In this document: positions 1-5,325 of the stretch, piece after piece
Numbering within the stretch: position 1 is the stretch's first letter
How the letters are laid out: the number at the start of each line of letters is the position of its first letter
Source: a virus
Taxonomy: Duplodnaviria; Heunggongvirae; Uroviricota; Caudoviricetes
Direction: 5' to 3' (one strand)
Virus record (IMG/VR): IMGVR_UViG_2660238230_000001
Coordinates: 1 to 5,325 of that record
Length of the DNA stretch: 5,325 bases
Made by a program: the position numbers and the translations under genes
The notes under the pieces: generated by a model
What the model was told of the DNA's origin: nothing
The model's input: only the letters and a program-made list of their open reading frames with translations
The model's database searches: none

Positions 1-90
1 AGCCAGAGTAAATCCTGCTCACAAAAATTCGCCGGAGCGAACTCAACAAAATGCAGCGTATGTCCGGCAAAGGGGAGGGAGGTATGCGTA

Positions 91-219
91 GCCGGCTGCA
101 TTATTGGCCCGTGGGGGCTGCGACTGGTGACCGATGCCGAATCTATTCTGCACTTTGCCGAGATTGGGGTGGTGCTGATGCTGTTTATTATCGGCCTCGA
201 ACTCGATCCACAAAGGCTC
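91..219 (+). pseudogene. kefC: Internal fragment of kefC-like glutathione-regulated K+/H+ antiporter (N-terminal transmembrane region only, no start or stop)
   Basis: Plus-strand translation [43 protein letters not shown] matches the conserved N-terminal membrane segment of enterobacterial KefC as I recall it. Similarity stops abruptly on both sides (upstream reads ...GREVCV, downstream reads SRSSKRL). The six-frame ORF 127..585 fuses this fragment to antisense of phage gene R and is not a real gene. Confidence 0.6.
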
Positions 220-251
220 AGCCGGTCTTCAAAACGCTTAAACTCATTCAT
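220..251 (-). pseudogene. S: Probable 5' remnant (about 10 codons, [10 protein letters not shown]...) of P2-like tail completion / virion morphogenesis gene S, truncated at the junction with the kefC fragment
   Basis: ATG at 251-249 overlaps the last codon and stop of R (minus-strand ATGAATGA arrangement), the expected position for S in P2-like late operons. The frame stays open to the window edge only because it runs antisense through unrelated sequence. The S protein sequence itself was not recognised. Confidence 0.3.
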
Positions 252-711
252 CCCACTTGCTCACCAGTTCGCCATTGATATAAAGCTCCACCGGGCGGGT
301 GACCGGCTCCGGCGGCGGAGGTTCCGGGATATTCTTCACATGCAGCGCGCCGTCAACCTCACTGACCAGCGTGCGCTCGGTCAGCATCAGGCTGATGCTG
401 ATATCAAAGCTGCTGTCATTGTTGATGTCTGCATAAAACGTGAAGCCCTTTTTCTGGCCTTCGTCGGTGGTCATGATGTCGGGCTGATTTTCCCGCAGCC
501 ACGCCAGCACCGGCACAATGAGCAGGTCAAAATCACCGGTAAAGTCGGTCACAATCACATTGAGCGTGTAACGCTTTTCGAATGACATAGACGTCGCCAG
601 TGTGGAGGCAATACTCCCGTTATCCACGAATATCCGCAGCATCTCGGGACTGGTTTTCAGCACCGTGACGGCGTCAGTCAGCGCCCTGCGCAGGCTGTCG
701 GGTTTGAGCAT
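244..711 (-). CDS. R: P2-like tail completion protein R
   Basis: 155 aa ORF ([19 protein letters not shown]...[14 protein letters not shown]) matching my recollection of the phage P2 gpR family in length and sequence. ATG at 711-709 with AGGA about 8 nt upstream. Position immediately after lysB/lysC as in P2. Confidence 0.8.
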
Positions 712-964
712 CGTTTTCGTCCTGACAGTGTTTAATCATTTTTACCTGGCTGGCACAGCGTGCCAGCGCGTTCTCAAGCTGCCGGATATCAGCACTTAAA
801 TCGCCGTTCGTCTGCGGGTCACTGCCCGGCATCGGGCAAAGGCTCACTTTCGGGCAGGCGTTGGCGACAATCACTGGCGTCAGTGCAGGTCGGACGCTGG
901 TGCAACCGGCGCACAGCATCAGGCAGGTCAGCGCCATACCAGCGGCGAAAATCCTCGTTTTCAT
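674..964 (-). CDS. lysC: o-spanin (Rz1-like outer-membrane lipoprotein), P2 LysC-like
   Basis: 96 aa ORF starting MKTRIFAAGMALTCLMLCAGC: signal peptide with lipobox-like LCAG|C. Starts inside lysB in a different frame and extends about 145 nt beyond the lysB stop (overlapped spanin architecture). GAGG about 9 nt upstream of ATG at 964-962. Its 3' end overlaps the R start by 38 nt. Confidence 0.7.
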   Translation of the reverse strand: MKTRIFAAGMALTCLMLCAGCTSVRPALTPVIVANACPKVSLCPMPGSDPQTNGDLSADIRQLENALARCASQVKMIKHCQDENDAQTRQPAQGAD

Positions 965-1244
965 TCAGTAACCTCGTGATGGTTTTCTCGCGCTGTGCTT
1001 CACGTTTCGCGGCGTTCTCCAGTTCCTGACGCAGTGCCACCTGCGCCAGCTCGTTTTTGTCTGCCCTGGTAAGGGCAACATGAAGCTGATTTTTCAGCAT
1101 GGTGATGGTCGTCTGCTGACCGCTGGCGACGTTGTTCGCCCTGTCCAGCGAGGCGCGCAGGCTGGCGTTTTCATGCTTCGCCAGAAACAGACCTGTCACC
1201 GCCAGCGATAACAACACGACCAGCACAATCATCAGCTTTGACAT
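819..1244 (-). CDS. lysB: i-spanin (Rz-like inner-membrane spanin component), P2 LysB-like
   Basis: 141 aa ORF with an N-terminal transmembrane helix (MSKLMIVLVVLLSLAVTGLFLA) followed by a charged, coiled-coil-like periplasmic region. Contains the lysC start in another frame. ATG at 1244-1242 with a GAGGGG run upstream. Confidence 0.7.
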   Translation of the reverse strand: MSKLMIVLVVLLSLAVTGLFLAKHENASLRASLDRANNVASGQQTTITMLKNQLHVALTRADKNELAQVALRQELENAAKREAQREKTITRLLNENEDFRRWYGADLPDAVRRLHQRPTCTDASDCRQRLPESEPLPDAGQ

Positions 1245-1657
1245 GGTTCCCGCCCCTCAAGACGCTGACGACAGGCCGTACGTATCAGCCGGAAAAACAG
1301 CGACGCCACAAGATAAATCAGCGCGGTAAAAATCCACCCGGCAGCGACCAGCGAGATAAACGTCGCCACCATCACCACCAGACCCACCGCCCGTCTGCAC
1401 CACGTCACCGGCTGCAAAAACAGCGACGTGACAATCTTCACAGCCAGCGATTCCGGCGGCAGCTCCCGCCCGTAGCGTTCCAGCACATACTCAGTGGCAT
1501 ACACCCCGACACCACCGGCAACCGCACAGATAACCGTCGCCAGAATCGCCCAGGCGGCGACAAAACTGACGGCCACGCTCTGCGGGTAAATCAGGGACAG
1601 TGCCAGCATCAGCGCCAGCGACACGTTCAGCATCAGTGAAAGGGATAATTTCTTCAT
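1232..1657 (-). CDS. lysA: Multi-pass membrane protein, P2 LysA-like lysis timing / regulatory protein
   Basis: 141 aa hydrophobic ORF with several predicted TM segments, located between endolysin K and lysB as in P2. ATG at 1657-1655 with GGAG upstream. 3' end overlaps the lysB start by 13 nt. Confidence 0.6.
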   Translation of the reverse strand: MKKLSLSLMLNVSLALMLALSLIYPQSVAVSFVAAWAILATVICAVAGGVGVYATEYVLERYGRELPPESLAVKIVTSLFLQPVTWCRRAVGLVVMVATFISLVAAGWIFTALIYLVASLFFRLIRTACRQRLEGREPCQS

Positions 1658-1671
1658 GGTGTTTACTCCGT

Positions 1672-2169
1672 TTAAGCCGGTACGCCGCCAGCGGTACGCC
1701 AGACGGTGACCAGTTTTTCCAGTGAATGCTCACGCTGACCGTAACCGGCACCCGGCAGGGACGCCCAGATATTGCGACAGCGTGAAATGGCGCGCTCAAT
1801 GCGTCCCGCCCGGATGTCATCCAGCGCACCGCGTTCGCGGATCAACTGAATGGCGAGTCTGTCCTGTGACAACGGACTGAAATCCGGCAGGGCAAGCTGT
1901 TTGCGGTAATGCGGCCAGAACAGGTAAAGCTGCTGATAGCGACCGGAGGCCGTGGATTTTTCACCGCGACGGTTAAACACCTTCGCCGGTCGGCCATGCG
2001 CGAACGGGTGGTCACTGTAGTCGGTGAAAATTTCCGGCTTCCCGTCCAGTCCGGTGACTATCACGTCATAGCCACGGTTTTTCGTCAGCGGATGGTTCGC
2101 CGTCCCTTCGGACACGGCCAGCATGTCGAGAAAGGCGGCGATATTCTGATGCGTGTTAATTACCGGCAT
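1672..2169 (-). CDS. K: Endolysin, lambda R / P2 K-type lytic transglycosylase (phage lysozyme family)
   Basis: 165 aa ORF with the hallmark motifs FLDML..SEGT, GYDVIV, FTDYSDHP, GRYQ, FSP.SQD and IWASLPGAGYGQ.EH shared with lambda R endolysin. Its ATG (2169-2167) overlaps the holin stop by 1 nt (TAATG on the minus strand). Confidence 0.9.
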   Translation of the reverse strand: MPVINTHQNIAAFLDMLAVSEGTANHPLTKNRGYDVIVTGLDGKPEIFTDYSDHPFAHGRPAKVFNRRGEKSTASGRYQQLYLFWPHYRKQLALPDFSPLSQDRLAIQLIRERGALDDIRAGRIERAISRCRNIWASLPGAGYGQREHSLEKLVTVWRTAGGVPA

Positions 2170-2450
2170 TACGGTTTCCCCCTGCCCTTAAAGCGGCGCT
2201 GAATGGCAATCTCAATCACCTGATAACCGGCGATACCCAGCATGGAGCCGATGCCGCACACCGCAGGCAATGACAGGTCAGGAAACTGCACCAGAACAAC
2301 ACCGGCAACCATCGAGACAAAACCACCGAGCAACATGCGTCCGATAAACAGACGCGGGGTGATGGGTTCACCACCGGCAAGCACCTTGCCGACAACAATC
2401 AGCACCCCAATCATGAAAAGCGACAGGACGCTTTTTTCTTCTGCTGTCAT
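2169..2450 (-). CDS. Y: Holin, P2 Y-like
   Basis: 93 aa small membrane protein with hydrophobic segments and a basic C-terminus (RRFKGRGKP), immediately upstream of and translationally coupled to the endolysin. GGGAG upstream of ATG at 2450-2448. Confidence 0.75.
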   Translation of the reverse strand: MTAEEKSVLSLFMIGVLIVVGKVLAGGEPITPRLFIGRMLLGGFVSMVAGVVLVQFPDLSLPAVCGIGSMLGIAGYQVIEIAIQRRFKGRGKP

Positions 2451-2453
2451 GCG

Positions 2454-2657
2454 TTACTCCCACAGATTGACAGTTTCAGCCACGGGCGCGGTCTGAACGT
2501 CGGGCAGTTCGACGGCGGTGCCGTGCGGCAGCACCGCGCCCAGTTCAGCCAGTCCCGGATTTGCGGCGAGCACGGCTTCGACCACGCCCTCAGTGCGCCC
2601 GTAATACCGGACACAAATGGCGTCGAGCGTGTCGCCCTGTAGCGCAAAGGTCTTCAT
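2454..2657 (-). CDS. X: P2-like tail protein X
   Basis: The six-frame ORF 2454..2726 has a plausible internal start giving a 67 aa product (MKTFALQGDTLDAICVRYYGRTEGVV...VNLWE), matching my recollection of the P2 gpX family. Its ATG (2657-2655) overlaps the L stop by 1 nt (TGATG on the minus strand). Confidence 0.75.
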   Translation of the reverse strand: MKTFALQGDTLDAICVRYYGRTEGVVEAVLAANPGLAELGAVLPHGTAVELPDVQTAPVAETVNLWE

Positions 2658-3166
2658 CAGATTTGACTCACGATGCAGCGTGGCTTGTCCTGGATGCGCG
2701 CCACTGCCCAGCGCATATCCCGCCACAGCTCATCAATGGTGCTGTCAATGCTGTCGGCCTTCTTGTCGCCTTTCGCACTGGCATCCACGCCGCGATAACG
2801 CTCATAAAGCGACGCGGTCGCCATCGCACACACGGCGCGCTCGTAGTAAAAAACTTTGATGCTTTCACCGTCGATGTCGTCCGCCGGGACGTCAGCCAGA
2901 CACGTAAAACCGGCGGCAATTTTCTGTTCGCGGTACTCGTACAGCTCCGCATTCGTTTCAGCCATGCCTGACTTGATGGCCTCACGCAGACGGGCAGGGG
3001 CGACGGTCTGCTCAAGGCGCATACGTTCCCGGACGCGCTTCGGGTCGATATCGGGAAAAAAGAACGTGTTTTTAATCACCGGCTCGTCGCCTGCCGGTTG
3101 CGGGATGACCACCGTACCCTCACCGGACACGGGAGCCTCCTTTCGCGGAATAATCAGCGTCATCAT
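2657..3166 (-). CDS. L: P2-like head completion/stabilization protein L
   Basis: The six-frame ORF 2657..3226 is trimmed to the ATG at 3166-3164, which has GAGG 6-9 nt upstream. This gives 169 aa (MMTLIIPRKEAPVSGEGTVVIP...PRCIVSQI), consistent with the P2 gpL family and position (M-L-X order). Confidence 0.8.
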   Translation of the reverse strand: MMTLIIPRKEAPVSGEGTVVIPQPAGDEPVIKNTFFFPDIDPKRVRERMRLEQTVAPARLREAIKSGMAETNAELYEYREQKIAAGFTCLADVPADDIDGESIKVFYYERAVCAMATASLYERYRGVDASAKGDKKADSIDSTIDELWRDMRWAVARIQDKPRCIVSQI

Positions 3167-3265
3167 GACTACCTCTGAAAAGTCGGGCGGTGGACGCCGG
3201 TACAGTGTCAGGTGATTCACCCTCACTGACCGGCGTGCCGCCCTGGCGCGGGGCGCATTCGGTTG

Positions 3266-4009
3266 TTAACTGGCTTTCTTTTTCGGGCGTCCACGTTTTG
3301 CCGGTGTCACGCTCCGGGTCTTACGCGGGGCGCAGGTGGCCGCTTTTGGCTGTGGCTCCGGCTTCGGTTTCAGCTCCCGCTCCAGTCGTTCAATCTCTTT
3401 TTTGACGCCTGCCTGACAGTCGAGCTGTGTCGCACGTTGCAGGTGCGCCAGCGCCCCTGCGGCATCACCAGCGTCACGCAGAAACAGACCGGTGATTTTG
3501 TGCAGCTTTGCGCGCACTTCATCAGGCATGTCAGCCGTGGCGGTCAGTTCGAGGGTGTCCGTCAGCAGGCGGGGATCCACAGACTCACCGGCAGCGTGGG
3601 CGCGCATGGCCGCGAGCGCCACCTCCTCGGTGAACATGTACGGCGGGGTGCGACGGTGTTTACCCGGCATGGTCAGACCGTACTTCAGGGCATAACGGGC
3701 AATCTCCAGCGCACCGGCAATATCGCCGGTATCCAGACGCCACAGCATGACCGTCATCAGAATGTCATCCTGTGCACCTTTGCCCTGCTCCAGCACGCCG
3801 TTCACCCACGGCAACCAGAACGGCAGCAGTTCGCGTTTTTTCGCGGCCTTCAGCTCTTTTGAATAAATTGCTTTCAGTGTGCGCTGGTCTGCGGCCAGCT
3901 TGACCAGCATCTGCTCATAGACAGTTGCATGTCGCAGCGGGGCGGCTTCCCGCTGCGCGGTCATCGCTGCCGAGACCCGCATCATGTGGCGCTGTGCGGG
4001 ACTCGTCAT
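3266..4009 (-). CDS. M: P2-like terminase small (endonuclease) subunit M
   Basis: 247 aa ORF with a basic C-terminal tail (KRGRPKKKAS), matching the P2 gpM family in size, sequence and position upstream of L. GGGAG about 8 nt upstream of ATG at 4009-4007, inside the end of the preceding N-like frame. Confidence 0.85.
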   Translation of the reverse strand: MTSPAQRHMMRVSAAMTAQREAAPLRHATVYEQMLVKLAADQRTLKAIYSKELKAAKKRELLPFWLPWVNGVLEQGKGAQDDILMTVMLWRLDTGDIAGALEIARYALKYGLTMPGKHRRTPPYMFTEEVALAAMRAHAAGESVDPRLLTDTLELTATADMPDEVRAKLHKITGLFLRDAGDAAGALAHLQRATQLDCQAGVKKEIERLERELKPKPEPQPKAATCAPRKTRSVTPAKRGRPKKKAS

Positions 4010-4012
4010 CGG

Positions 4013-4100
4013 TTACGCTCCCGGCTCTGCGGTCGCTTTAGCCGGTGTGGAGAAATCACCGACCTTAATTTTTTCCACCAGACAACCGGCGGCGTAGTCC
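4013..4100 (-). pseudogene. N: 3'-terminal remnant (about 28 codons plus stop) of a P2-like major capsid gene N, truncated at the junction with 16S rDNA
   Basis: Open minus-strand frame ...DYAAGCLVEKIKVGDFSTPAKATAEPGA ending at TAA (4015-4013), 3 nt before the M start, which is the expected position for N. Assigned by position; the peptide itself is not verified from memory. Confidence 0.4.
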
Positions 4101-4246
4101 TCCTCCATCAGGCAGTTTCCCAGACATTACTCACCCGTCCGCCACTCGTCAGCGAAGCAGCAAGCTGCTTCCTGTTACCGTTCGACTTGCATGTGTTAGG
4201 CCTGCCGCCAGCGTTCAATCTGAGCCATGATCAAACTCTTCAATTT
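4101..4246 (-). rRNA. rrs: 16S rRNA gene, 5' end only (about the first 146 nt), truncated
   Basis: Minus-strand sequence from 4246 reads AAATTGAAGAGTTTGATCATGGCTCAGATTGAACGCTGGCGGCAGGCCTAACACATGCAAGTCGAACGG...GGGAAACTGCCTGATGGAGG, the canonical enterobacterial 16S 5' end. Similarity stops near 4100, where GGGGATAACTACTGG is expected but phage sequence follows. Confidence 0.9.
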
Positions 4247-4377
4247 AAAAGTTTGATGCTCAAAGAATTAAACTTCGTAATGAATTACGTGTTCACTCTT
4301 GAGACTTGGTATTCATTTTTCGTCTTGCGACGTTAAGAATCCGTATCTTCGAGTGCCCACACAGATTGTCTGATAAA

Positions 4378-4390
4378 TTGTTAAAGAGCA
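4378..4390 (-). promoter_or_regulatory. rrn leader boxA antitermination element
   Basis: Minus-strand TGCTCTTTAACAA, the conserved rrn boxA motif, within the leader between the P2 promoter and the mature 16S 5' end. Confidence 0.7.
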
Positions 4391-4427
4391 GTGCCGCTTC
4401 GCTTTTTCTCAGCGGCGCGGGGTGTGC

Positions 4428-4455
4428 ATAATACGCTTTCCCGCTACAGAGTCAA
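4428..4455 (-). promoter_or_regulatory. rRNA operon P2 promoter (sigma70)
   Basis: Minus-strand -35 TTGACT (4455-4450) and -10 TATTAT (4433-4428) with a 16 nt spacer, matching the rrnB P2 context GCTTGACTCTGTAGCGGGAA.GCGTATTATGC. Confidence 0.75.
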
Positions 4456-4545
4456 GCATTTTTTTGCTTTTCTCTGTTGAGATTCTCAGGAGAACCCCGC
4501 TGACCCGGCGGCGTGTTTGCCGTTGTTCCGTGTCAGTGGTGGCGC

Positions 4546-4573
4546 ATTATAGGGAGTTATTCCGGCCTGACAA
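4546..4573 (-). promoter_or_regulatory. rRNA operon P1 promoter (sigma70)
   Basis: Minus-strand -35 TTGTCA (4573-4568) and -10 TATAAT (4551-4546) with a 16 nt spacer, followed by the GCGC discriminator. Matches rrnB P1 (CTCTTGTCAGGCCGGAATAACTCCCTATAATGCGCCACC). Confidence 0.8.
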
Positions 4574-4574
4574 G

Positions 4575-4598
4575 AGGAAATTTAAAATAATTTTCTGA
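4575..4598 (-). promoter_or_regulatory. UP element of rrn P1
   Basis: Minus-strand A/T-rich TCAGAAAATTATTTTAAATTTCCT immediately upstream of the P1 -35 hexamer, matching the classic rrnB P1 UP element. Confidence 0.7.
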
Positions 4599-4618
4599 CC
4601 GCGCAACATTCAACCAAA

Positions 4619-4711
4619 TCAACCTAAAACTGCCAGTTTTTCGAGCGTTCCGAAGCCGTAACGCTGTAAAACGGGCAATAATTGTTCAGCTTCTGTCGTC
4701 ATTGCCAGCAC
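4619..4711 (-). pseudogene. murI: 3' end (about 30 codons plus stop) of glutamate racemase gene murI
   Basis: Minus-strand translation ...[28 protein letters not shown] matches the MurI C-terminus, and murI is the natural upstream neighbour of rrsB. Similarity to MurI is lost above about 4711, so the six-frame ORF 4619..4915 is chimeric. Confidence 0.65.
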
Positions 4712-4820
4712 CAGCCCTTTTTTCAGATTGAACTCTTCGGCTTTAATGCCCATCTTGCGCTCTTTCAACTGCCCGGCTCGAGTTACAATCCCTACGCCAA
4801 TCAGCGCCACCAGAACGCCG

Positions 4821-4985
4821 CAGACCTTCGTTGTTGGCAAAGTTCGCCAGTACAATCTGCCCCAGCAGTTGGGTTTGTTCGTTGGAATAGTTGCCGACAA
4901 CCGTACCGTCATCATTGATTTGATAACTCACCAGATCGCCCGGTTTGTAGCCGTTCTGGGTGGTTGCCACAATATTGTTAGCGCC
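4821..4985 (-). pseudogene. flgE: Internal fragment (about 55 codons) of flagellar hook protein gene flgE
   Basis: Minus-strand translation [55 protein letters not shown] matches the C-proximal conserved region of enterobacterial FlgE. It has no start and no native C-terminus; flanking sequence on both sides is unrelated to FlgE. Confidence 0.65.
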
Positions 4986-5211
4986 TAGAGCAAACTGAAG
5001 GGGTAACCTAAGCCGAGGTTAATTAATAGCGACTGTAAAAAGTAGAACGCAGTCCACGTGCTAAATACCCGGCTACGGGTAACAAGCGATTCTTTGAGGG
5101 TTAAATTCATATGCCACTATCGTAACAAACGCCATGTGCTTACCCGGGCGTCAAGGGTCAATCCCTGCAAGAGTGCGTGAAGAGGGCACGCCGCACAGCC
5201 CGTCACGCTAC

Positions 5212-5325
5212 CTATTCGTCGATGATTGACTCGAATCCGCCATAGATCATTCGCTTGCCGTCAAACGGCATGGACTCGCCGAACTCTTTCATCCGTGGGT
5301 CCGACATCATCTTTTGATTAGCAGC
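5212..5325 (-). CDS. 3' end of an unidentified ORF running off the window edge (...AANQKMMSDPRMKEFGESMPFDGKRMIYGGFESIIDE*)
   Basis: Open minus-strand frame of 37 codons ending at TAG (5214-5212) with enterobacterial-like codon usage. Product not recognised. May be another fragment rather than an intact gene. Confidence 0.3.
   Translation of the reverse strand, partial: AANQKMMSDPRMKEFGESMPFDGKRMIYGGFESIIDE

Follow-up and report, generated by a model that had tools for sequence, protein, structure and literature searches.

A 5,325-bp contig with a P2 late-gene block: an almost certain laboratory or assembly chimera of E. coli fragments

Introduction

P2-like (Peduovirus) prophages are the closest described relatives of the largest part of the DNA analyzed here, and in all of the natural P2 relatives that we fetched, the genes O, P, and Q precede N, while V, W, J, and I follow S. 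Shattered E. coli DNA is co-integrated as complex end-joined arrays in biolistic and pronuclear transgene insertions, and such arrays contain many small shuffled fragments, 0 to 4 nt of microhomology, and occasional filler bases. In library and shotgun-clone ligation chimeras, unrelated fragments follow one another end to end, their order and orientation are random, and homology at the junctions is slight or absent; short fragments are over-represented in them, each product is a unique single molecule, and the documented cases usually hold two or three fragments. Long-read libraries are one documented source of ligation chimeras, for instance those made with the MinION ligation kit (White et al. 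2017, PMC5600009). MDA (phi29) also generates artefacts in which E. coli DNA is rearranged, some of the joins having short complementarity; >85% of these chimeras join inverted segments of one molecule and have lost the DNA in between, and >70% start at 2 to 21 nt of complementarity (Lasken & Stockwell 2007, PMC1855051).

The window, by which we mean the whole 5,325-nt stretch analyzed here, resembles P2-like prophages in carrying a colinear and intact M-L-X-Y-K-lysA-lysB-lysC-R series at 98 to 99.8% identity, whereas it differs from them in being a 3.9-kb internal slice without integrase, att, cos, replication, and tail genes. It appears to resemble the library ligation chimeras in the features listed above, except for the number of fragments, which is eight here. 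A sequence-only reading had described the window as a patchwork of unrelated fragments with abrupt breakpoints and without mobile-element hallmarks, and had preferred an assembly chimera or an artificial/shuffled construct to a natural island.

Results

The window was found to be the whole of record CDRN01001828.1 (5,325 bp; reverse complement) in GCA_000944855.1, a very fragmented draft assembly that comprises at least 1,828 records. It contains no Ns, and both contig ends fall inside fragments, with no chromosomal anchor. As shown in Table 1, mapping to the base level resolved it into eight E. coli-derived pieces and seven junctions, and the proposed patchwork is therefore real. One of the pieces is 3.9 kb long and the other seven are ~90 to 610 bp, and every piece is 98.5 to 100% identical to references, with BLAST E-values of 1e-36 to 0. 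Segment-by-segment BLAST, which had been suggested as a check, placed each segment on the E. coli chromosome or on P2. In the chromosomal flanks, all of the piece boundaries lie within housekeeping genes, and every gene in the window is truncated except for the internal P2 lysis and head-tail genes. The only genes called were the P2 late genes, one chimeric ORF, and the ybaA fragment.

Table 1. Pieces and features mapped in the 5,325-nt window (window coordinates)
Feature	Position	Strand	Details
entD internal fragment	1..91	-	CDS nt 8-98; MG1655 609982-610072
kefC internal fragment	92..218	+	CDS nt ~109-236; MG1655 47877-48004
P2 (Peduovirus) late-gene block, end genes N and S both truncated	219..4099	-	
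S, first 32 nt	219-250	-	
R	244-711	-	
lysC	overlapping	-	
lysB	819-1244	-	
lysA	1232-1657	-	
K endolysin	1672-2169	-	
Y holin	2169-2450	-	
X	2454-2657	-	
L	2657-3166	-	
M	3266-4009	-	
N, last ~87 nt	4013-4099	-	
rrnB-murI fragment	4100..4707	-	99.8% identity
16S rRNA 5' end	~4100-4246	-	within rrnB-murI fragment
rrnB promoter and leader	4247-4618	-	within rrnB-murI fragment
murI, last 89 nt	4619-4707	-	within rrnB-murI fragment
rhaT internal fragment	4708..4820	-	100% identity; MG1655 ~4099997-4100109
flgE internal fragment	4821..4985	-	MG1655 1133548-1133384
opgE, first 125 nt (4986-5110), and 76 nt upstream	4986..5186	-	best identity 98.5%
ybaA, last 114 nt (5212-5325), and 25 nt of ybaA-pdeB intergenic DNA	5187..5325	-	100% identity; reaches contig end
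Chimeric 98-aa ORF across the flgE/rhaT and rhaT/murI junctions	4619..4915	-	from gene caller; Pfam label RhaT

The pieces agree closely with several fragments that had been proposed from the letters of the sequence. The kefC piece, placed at 91-219, runs from 91/92 to 218; the P2-like late block cut inside S and N, placed at 220-4100, runs from 218/219 to 4099; and the segment comprising the murI 3' end, the rrn promoter, and the 16S 5' end, placed at 4101-4711, runs from 4100/4102 to 4707 and derives from rrnB. For the internal flgE piece, the proposed borders at 4821-4985 were exact. Four spacers are present as described, but they are not unassigned, since they correspond to entD, rhaT, opgE, and ybaA, all from the E. 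coli chromosome. A breakpoint suggested at ~5211 turned out to be the ybaA stop codon, the true junction being at 5186/5187.

The kefC piece is 100% identical to K-12, starting at window position 91, and the flgE piece is also 100% identical, with a K-12 derivative among the matches. The entD piece is 98.9% identical in 5,415 genomes and identical in none. A laboratory K-12 strain was considered as the source of the DNA and rejected, both because the murI-rrsB spacer shows 97.2% identity to MG1655 versus 99.8% to wild strains and because K-12 lacks such a P2 block. The only Rfam match was a sub-threshold one to Ysr197 in the rrnB leader, which is irrelevant to the chimera question. Five bases of the window are private, namely those at 37 (entD D21A), 4101 (16S), 5059 (opgE P18T), and 5146 and 5163 (both upstream of opgE), with the three differences in the opgE piece counted against the closest complete genomes. 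Four of the five occur in the two short entD and opgE pieces and are all transversions, while the fifth (4101) is in the 608-bp rrn piece, 2 nt from a junction. Both of the coding changes (D21A and P18T) are non-synonymous. These few private bases look like errors. A scan of metagenome contigs for the private opgE alleles gave 0 exact matches, which is a weak result, as the scan had no positive control.

The P2 block is 98.1 to 98.2% identical to E. coli prophages and Peduovirus P2 (over 218-4107) and 99.82% identical to the natural prophages L009, L012, and L021. All of its ORFs are intact, and each of its internal differences is an allele that is present in another P2 relative. The Pfam families of its genes are Phage_term_smal, Phage_GPL, Phage_tail_X, Phage_holin_3_2, LysA, LysC, and P2_Phage_GpR, and the block thus has the colinear late genes and P2-family proteins of a P2-like prophage. 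The remainder of a complete prophage was not found in the window, neither the genes for capsid, portal, and terminase on the upstream side of M nor the tail, baseplate, integrase, and att beyond S; the block is bordered by 16S and kefC DNA and breaks inside N and S. We also considered whether the window could be a shuffled decoy sequence, which was rejected because it matches a deposited NCBI/ENA contig letter for letter and because all differences between its P2 block and natural prophages are alleles known from other relatives.

In the alignments of the seven junctions (91/92, 218/219, 4099/4100, 4707/4708, 4820/4821, 4985/4986, and 5186/5187), the parental sequences simply stop. The exact overlaps at junctions 1 to 7 are 1-3, 1, 0-2, 4, 0, 0, and 2 nt, respectively, i.e., 0 nt in two junctions, 1 nt in one or two, and at least 2 nt in three or four. 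The microhomologies include GCCA at junction 4, GG at junction 7, and TC at junction 3, where the TC sits in a 10-nt imperfect match (7/10) and interleaved bases are found at 4100-4101. Depending on the parental alleles, the overlaps sum to 8-12 nt versus 4.8 nt expected (P = 0.14-0.013). Clean junctions of this type are the pattern expected from blunt joining of random ends, and the slight excess of microhomology may be a trace of annealing in some of the joining, beyond blunt ligation alone. No restriction site is common to the junctions, and a restriction-fragment library was rejected as the source on this basis. Overlaps of only 0 to 4 nt rule out joining via a repeat or k-mer common to both sides; for a repeat-mediated misjoin, the repeat common to the two parental loci must reach the length of the assembler's k-mer or overlap, and the loci here share a maximum of 4 exact nt. 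The 16S gene, which is the only repeat present, is joined to P2 inside the repeat and not through it. On MG1655, the loci of the seven chromosomal pieces range from 47 kb to 4.17 Mb and are in mixed orientation, adjacent chromosomal pieces are at least 66 kb apart, and all seven lie on the same (clockwise) replichore (~0.016 by chance).

The lack of mobile-element hallmarks was borne out, as the window has no tRNA or tmRNA, IS end, target duplication, or att site, a repeat search placed no pair of inverted or direct repeats at two piece borders, and none of the called genes encodes an integrase or transposase. The window has neither the integrase or recombinase with a tRNA or att core at a boundary that would mark a genomic island or integrative element nor the terminal inverted repeats and target-site duplications of an IS or composite transposon. 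The sequence-only reading would have yielded to the same arrangement in independent genomes, and none was found. Two adjacent pieces were joined in 0 of 5,426 complete E. coli genomes, 0 of 50,697 phage records, and 0 of 72,556 plasmids (PLSDB), and no complete E. coli genome, phage, or plasmid among these covers more than 73% of the window. The junction-spanning ORF is present on exactly one contig of a 153-billion-gene collection, which is CDRN01001828.1, and it was this ORF that led to the source record; its protein forms a singleton cluster in a 15-billion-protein collection. A search with exact P2 proteins for sibling records from this assembly yielded only longer contigs of other samples. 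Three of the seven junctions were scanned in contig collections as 40- or 50-mers, and there were 0 matches for kefC/P2 in viral contigs (IMG/VR), for P2/16S in viral (IMG/VR) and metagenome (JGI) contigs, and for flgE/opgE in genome contigs (GTDB representatives). A natural island, plasmid, or phage with this arrangement was rejected because the complete E. coli genomes, phages, and plasmids searched contain no such joins and the three scanned junctions were absent from the contigs searched.

Discussion

Our results leave almost no doubt that the window arose as a chimera in the laboratory or during assembly and that it does not represent a biological system. We assign a probability of about 0.85 to a non-biological chimera of E. 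coli fragments joined outside any genome, most likely by ligation during library or clone construction. The preference for an assembly chimera or artificial construct over a natural island is thus upheld by the single public record, the lack of these joins elsewhere, and the lack of a mobile signature. The label "artificial/shuffled" is apt insofar as the chimera is non-biological, but the sequence itself is not shuffled, as this is a deposited record of accurate natural E. coli DNA. DNA of one wild-type P2-lysogenic E. coli strain would have been sheared or degraded and its fragments ligated end to end during library or clone construction, after which the concatemer would have been sequenced as a single long molecule or insert, polished to near-perfect accuracy, and left as a stand-alone contig in a very fragmented draft assembly. 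The loci and orientation of the pieces fit a random ligation concatemer, and the overlap sum is compatible with one but slightly high. The single-replichore origin of the pieces is not predicted by random ligation and counts against this explanation, as does the fact that, in a short-read de Bruijn assembly of a pure isolate with an intact prophage, a 3.9-kb stretch is normally not carried into chimeric flanks.

We infer both that the joining occurred in vitro and that it was ligation rather than polymerase template switching. In the latter case, MDA or PCR-mediated recombination would have acted on fragmented E. coli DNA, such as host or reagent DNA in a low-input sample, with the growing 3' end jumping between templates at short complementary stretches. 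The 2 to 4 nt shared at some junctions, the 10-nt imperfect match around junction 3 with its base change 2 nt from the join, and a summed microhomology marginally above chance are all in keeping with such jumps, and if the E. coli DNA of the sample consisted of amplified chimeric molecules only, a short-read assembler could traverse all eight pieces. However, the nearby inverted joins with 2 to 21 nt of complementarity in most junctions that characterize MDA chimeras were not found; the partners here are 66 kb to megabases apart on MG1655, the overlap is 0 nt at two junctions and 0-1 nt at three or four of the seven, and it reaches 2 nt at only three or four, which leaves template switching unlikely. 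Software could also have created the joins, either by scaffolding or gap-filling without Ns or by false joins from noisy long-read correction, and four of the internal pieces, at 113-201 bp, are indeed about as long as short reads or minimal contigs, the high fragmentation of the assembly is in keeping with such joins, and the interleaving of bases at 4100-4101 looks like what a quality-weighted consensus would make of two sequences that overlap. Scaffolders insert Ns, repeat-driven misjoins require a shared stretch of at least k-mer length, and we know of no assembler, merger, or scaffolder that joins on 0 to 4 nt of overlap, whereas the window has no Ns, at most 4 exact nt shared at its junctions, and a 16S repeat joined to P2 from within. 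We consider software joins quite improbable.

The junctions could instead be real in the sampled DNA, through an in-vivo multi-fragment rearrangement or the integration of shattered E. coli DNA into another genome or plasmid. The 0 to 4 nt of microhomology, the 1-2 nt of ambiguous or filler bases, the mixed orientation, and the small fragments match end-joining products, the chromosomal pieces all come from one replichore, and the sequence quality is high. Against this, the arrangement is unique to one small, unanchored contig that ends inside fragments, it is absent from the genome, plasmid, phage, and metagenome collections searched, and it has no evident selectable function, with all genes other than the internal P2 ones truncated. 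Unlike the end-joined arrays of transgene insertions, the window has no non-E. coli flank or vector sequence and no sign of residence in a genome. Alternative end-joining in E. coli is very inefficient, and to our knowledge this species has no Ku/LigD end-joining and eight-piece end-joining products are undescribed. We therefore regard junctions that are real in the sampled DNA as very improbable. The specific scenario in which eight fragments, from one replichore and a resident P2, were stitched together in vivo by microhomology-assisted end-joining after catastrophic breakage, or in which shattered DNA was captured into another replicon, has a slimmer chance still; if true, the in-vivo stitching would be the equivalent in bacteria of chromothripsis or chromoanasynthesis, and if the junctions proved real at full depth, they would represent multi-fragment end-joining of a kind that is rare in E. 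coli.

As a ligation chimera, the contig encodes no system and has no biological significance, since nothing in it acts as a unit. Its value is practical, in that CDRN01001828.1 shows, with all of its pieces cleanly mapped, what a chimeric contig in a public assembly looks like. Large protein collections already contain a fake "RhaT" singleton protein that stems from the contig, and a scan might wrongly interpret it as a mosaic island, a truncated "P2 satellite", or a horizontal rRNA transfer. Flagging such records spares genome scans for novel systems from artefacts.

Composition of the window

The entire window and separate parts of it were searched against 5,426 complete E. coli genomes, 50,697 phage records, and 72,556 plasmids, and the borders of the pieces were set by local BLAST against reference loci together with base-by-base alignments of the junctions. 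This resolved eight pieces, so the patchwork of unrelated fragments described in the sequence-only reading is real. Six of its seven breakpoints were right to ~4 nt, while the last (~5211) is the ybaA stop codon, the true junction being 5186/5187; the four segments it had left as unassigned spacers were identified as entD, rhaT, opgE, and ybaA.

Pieces of the window, their origin in MG1655 (the E. coli K-12 reference), and base overlap at each junction (J1-J7)
Piece	Window	Identity to reference	MG1655 position (strand)	Junction with the next piece
entD	1-91	98.9%	609,982-610,072 (+)	J1: 1 nt (G) for the K-12 allele of kefC; another allele gives 3 nt (TAG) and a mismatch
kefC	92-218	100% to K-12 from position 91	47,877-48,004 (+)	J2: 1 nt (T)
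P2 late block	219-4099	98.1-99.82%		J3: 2 nt (TC), within a 10-nt imperfect match (7/10)
16S 5' end (rrsB), rrnB promoter/leader, last 89 nt of murI	4100-4707	99.8%	4,166,807-4,166,197 (-)	J4: 4 nt (GCCA)
rhaT	4708-4820	100%	4,099,993-4,100,109 (+)	J5: 0
flgE	4821-4985	100%	1,133,548-1,133,384 (-)	J6: 0
opgE first 125 nt and 76 nt upstream	4986-5186	98.5%	852,473-852,671 (+)	J7: 2 nt (GG)
ybaA-pdeB spacer and last 114 nt of ybaA	5187-5325	100%	477,052-476,912 (-)	

The seven chromosomal pieces are scattered on MG1655 in mixed orientation. All of them lie 174-1,849 kb clockwise of oriC and hence on one replichore (~0.016 by chance), which is probably a coincidence. K-12 was ruled out as the donor, since the murI-rrsB spacer matches wild strains at 99.8% but MG1655 at 97.2% identity and K-12 lacks such a P2 block. 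The same intergenic region, spanning the rrnB promoter-leader, also gave a sub-threshold Rfam match to Yersinia sRNA 197 (Ysr197; window 4368-4620, minus strand; score 87.6 bits, gathering threshold 167, E = 3e-20), a family that appears to represent this conserved spacer of enterobacteria.

The P2 block

Read on the minus strand, the P2 block opens in N, of which the last ~87 nt remain, continues through M, L, X, Y, K, lysA, lysB, lysC, and R, and stops 32 nt into S; gene names were taken from the annotation of the P2 relative L003 and from Pfam families. It shares 98.1-98.2% identity with Peduovirus P2 and the best prophages of complete genomes, and 99.82% with prophages on four contigs (L009, L012, L021, and L024). 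Every internal difference from these closest relatives is an allele present in another natural P2 relative: those at 283, 291, and 301 are common to L010 and L023, that at 4037 to L003 and L027, and that at 4052 to L027. All ORFs of the block are intact, and a protein-collection look-up placed the exact gpR protein on 182 contigs and the exact LysA on 48. The block is therefore accurate natural DNA, and the same observations ruled out a noisy read or a mutated decoy. Window positions 4100 and 4104 are unlike all twelve P2 references, and thus P2 homology ends at 4099.

Two features of the reference prophages were seen in passing. Outside the window, a GmrSD_N-domain gene adjoins the portal gene Q in L009, L010, L021, L023, and L024 (about 1-2350), accompanied in L021, L023, and L024 by genes for a HEPN (MAE_28990) protein and a DNA methylase, and L022, L025, and L027 carry other cargo at this spot, which looks like a variable anti-phage defense hotspot of P2-like prophages. 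In addition, the start codon of lysC, an embedded spanin gene, is annotated inconsistently, giving 81 aa in some records (L003 1959-2204; L011 8218-8463) versus 52 aa in others (L009 9178-9336) for near-identical sequence.

Junctions and private bases

Junction overlaps total 8-12 nt versus 4.8 expected for random joins (P 0.14 to 0.013, depending upon the assumed parental alleles), at most a weak excess over chance. Because individual overlaps are so short (0-4 nt), repeat- or k-mer-mediated misassembly was excluded. The junctions have no restriction site in common. The reported lack of mobile-element hallmarks also held: the window contains no tRNA, a repeat search found no inverted or direct repeats at piece borders, and no integrase or transposase is present among the called genes. 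At J3, window 4098-4107 reads TCCTCCTCCA, compared to TCTTCCACCA in P2 and TCCCCCTCCA in 16S. Bases 4100-4101 are interleaved, one agreeing with each parent, which looks like consensus across, or repair of, the imperfect 10-nt overlap.

Of the five bases that differ from the closest references, four are confined to two short pieces and the other adjoins a junction. The entD base at position 37 (D21A) was identical in 0 of 5,415 genomes, while the opgE piece differs from its closest complete genomes at 5059 (P18T), 5146, and 5163, with a best full-length identity of 98.5%. The allele pair 5146/5163 was not found in JGI metagenomes, a search for which no positive control was possible. The fifth is a C>T at 4101, in an invariant G5 run of 16S and 2 nt from J3. 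All four entD and opgE differences are transversions, and both coding changes are non-synonymous. Though only five in number, these bases suggest poorly supported consensus or errors rather than natural polymorphism.

A unique arrangement

A 98-aa ORF (4619-4915, minus strand) crosses the flgE/rhaT and rhaT/murI junctions, passing from out-of-frame flgE through rhaT to the murI C-terminus. It was called as a gene with the Pfam label RhaT, and its protein forms an unnamed singleton cluster among ~15 billion sequences. Exact look-up returned a single contig, CDRN01001828.1 of NCBI assembly GCA_000944855.1 (5,325 bp), which is the reverse complement of the window. The window is therefore an entire contig standing by itself in a draft assembly of at least 1,828 records; both contig ends lie inside fragments, and nothing anchors it in a chromosome.

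None of the complete E. coli genomes covers >73% of the window, a maximum reached by the P2 block alone, and none of these genomes, the phage records, or the plasmids joins two adjacent pieces. Exact 40- or 50-mer scans took in three of the seven junctions and yielded no match for kefC/P2 in IMG/VR, for P2/16S in IMG/VR and JGI metagenomes, or for flgE/opgE in GTDB-representative genomes. Thus, the arrangement was found in no independent genome, which supports the earlier suggestion of a chimera.

Origin of the probable chimera

We consider it highly probable (roughly 0.85) that the window is a non-biological chimera. In this reading, DNA from a single wild, P2-lysogenic E. coli would have been sheared or degraded, and its fragments linked end to end before capture as one molecule or contig. 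Fragment-to-fragment ligation would be the favored route, because the joins are near-blunt, the pieces are randomly ordered and oriented, and short fragments are over-represented; such chimeras are documented for long-read ligation libraries (PMC5600009). Template switching during MDA or PCR is a possible alternative, but MDA chimeras are characterized by >85% nearby inverted joins and by 2-21 nt of homology at >70% of junctions (PMC1855051), a signature the window junctions match poorly.

Joins made by software are unlikely, given that the overlaps are only 0-4 nt and the window contains no Ns. A genuine in vivo multi-fragment end-joining product is conceivable but improbable: no second observation supports it, it has no anchoring flanks, and it would require a process not known to have been described in E. 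coli.

The window contains no novel system and its scientific interest is low. As an artifact, CDRN01001828.1 is worth flagging in databases, and its 98-aa RhaT-labeled singleton illustrates how such a contig contaminates protein databases.
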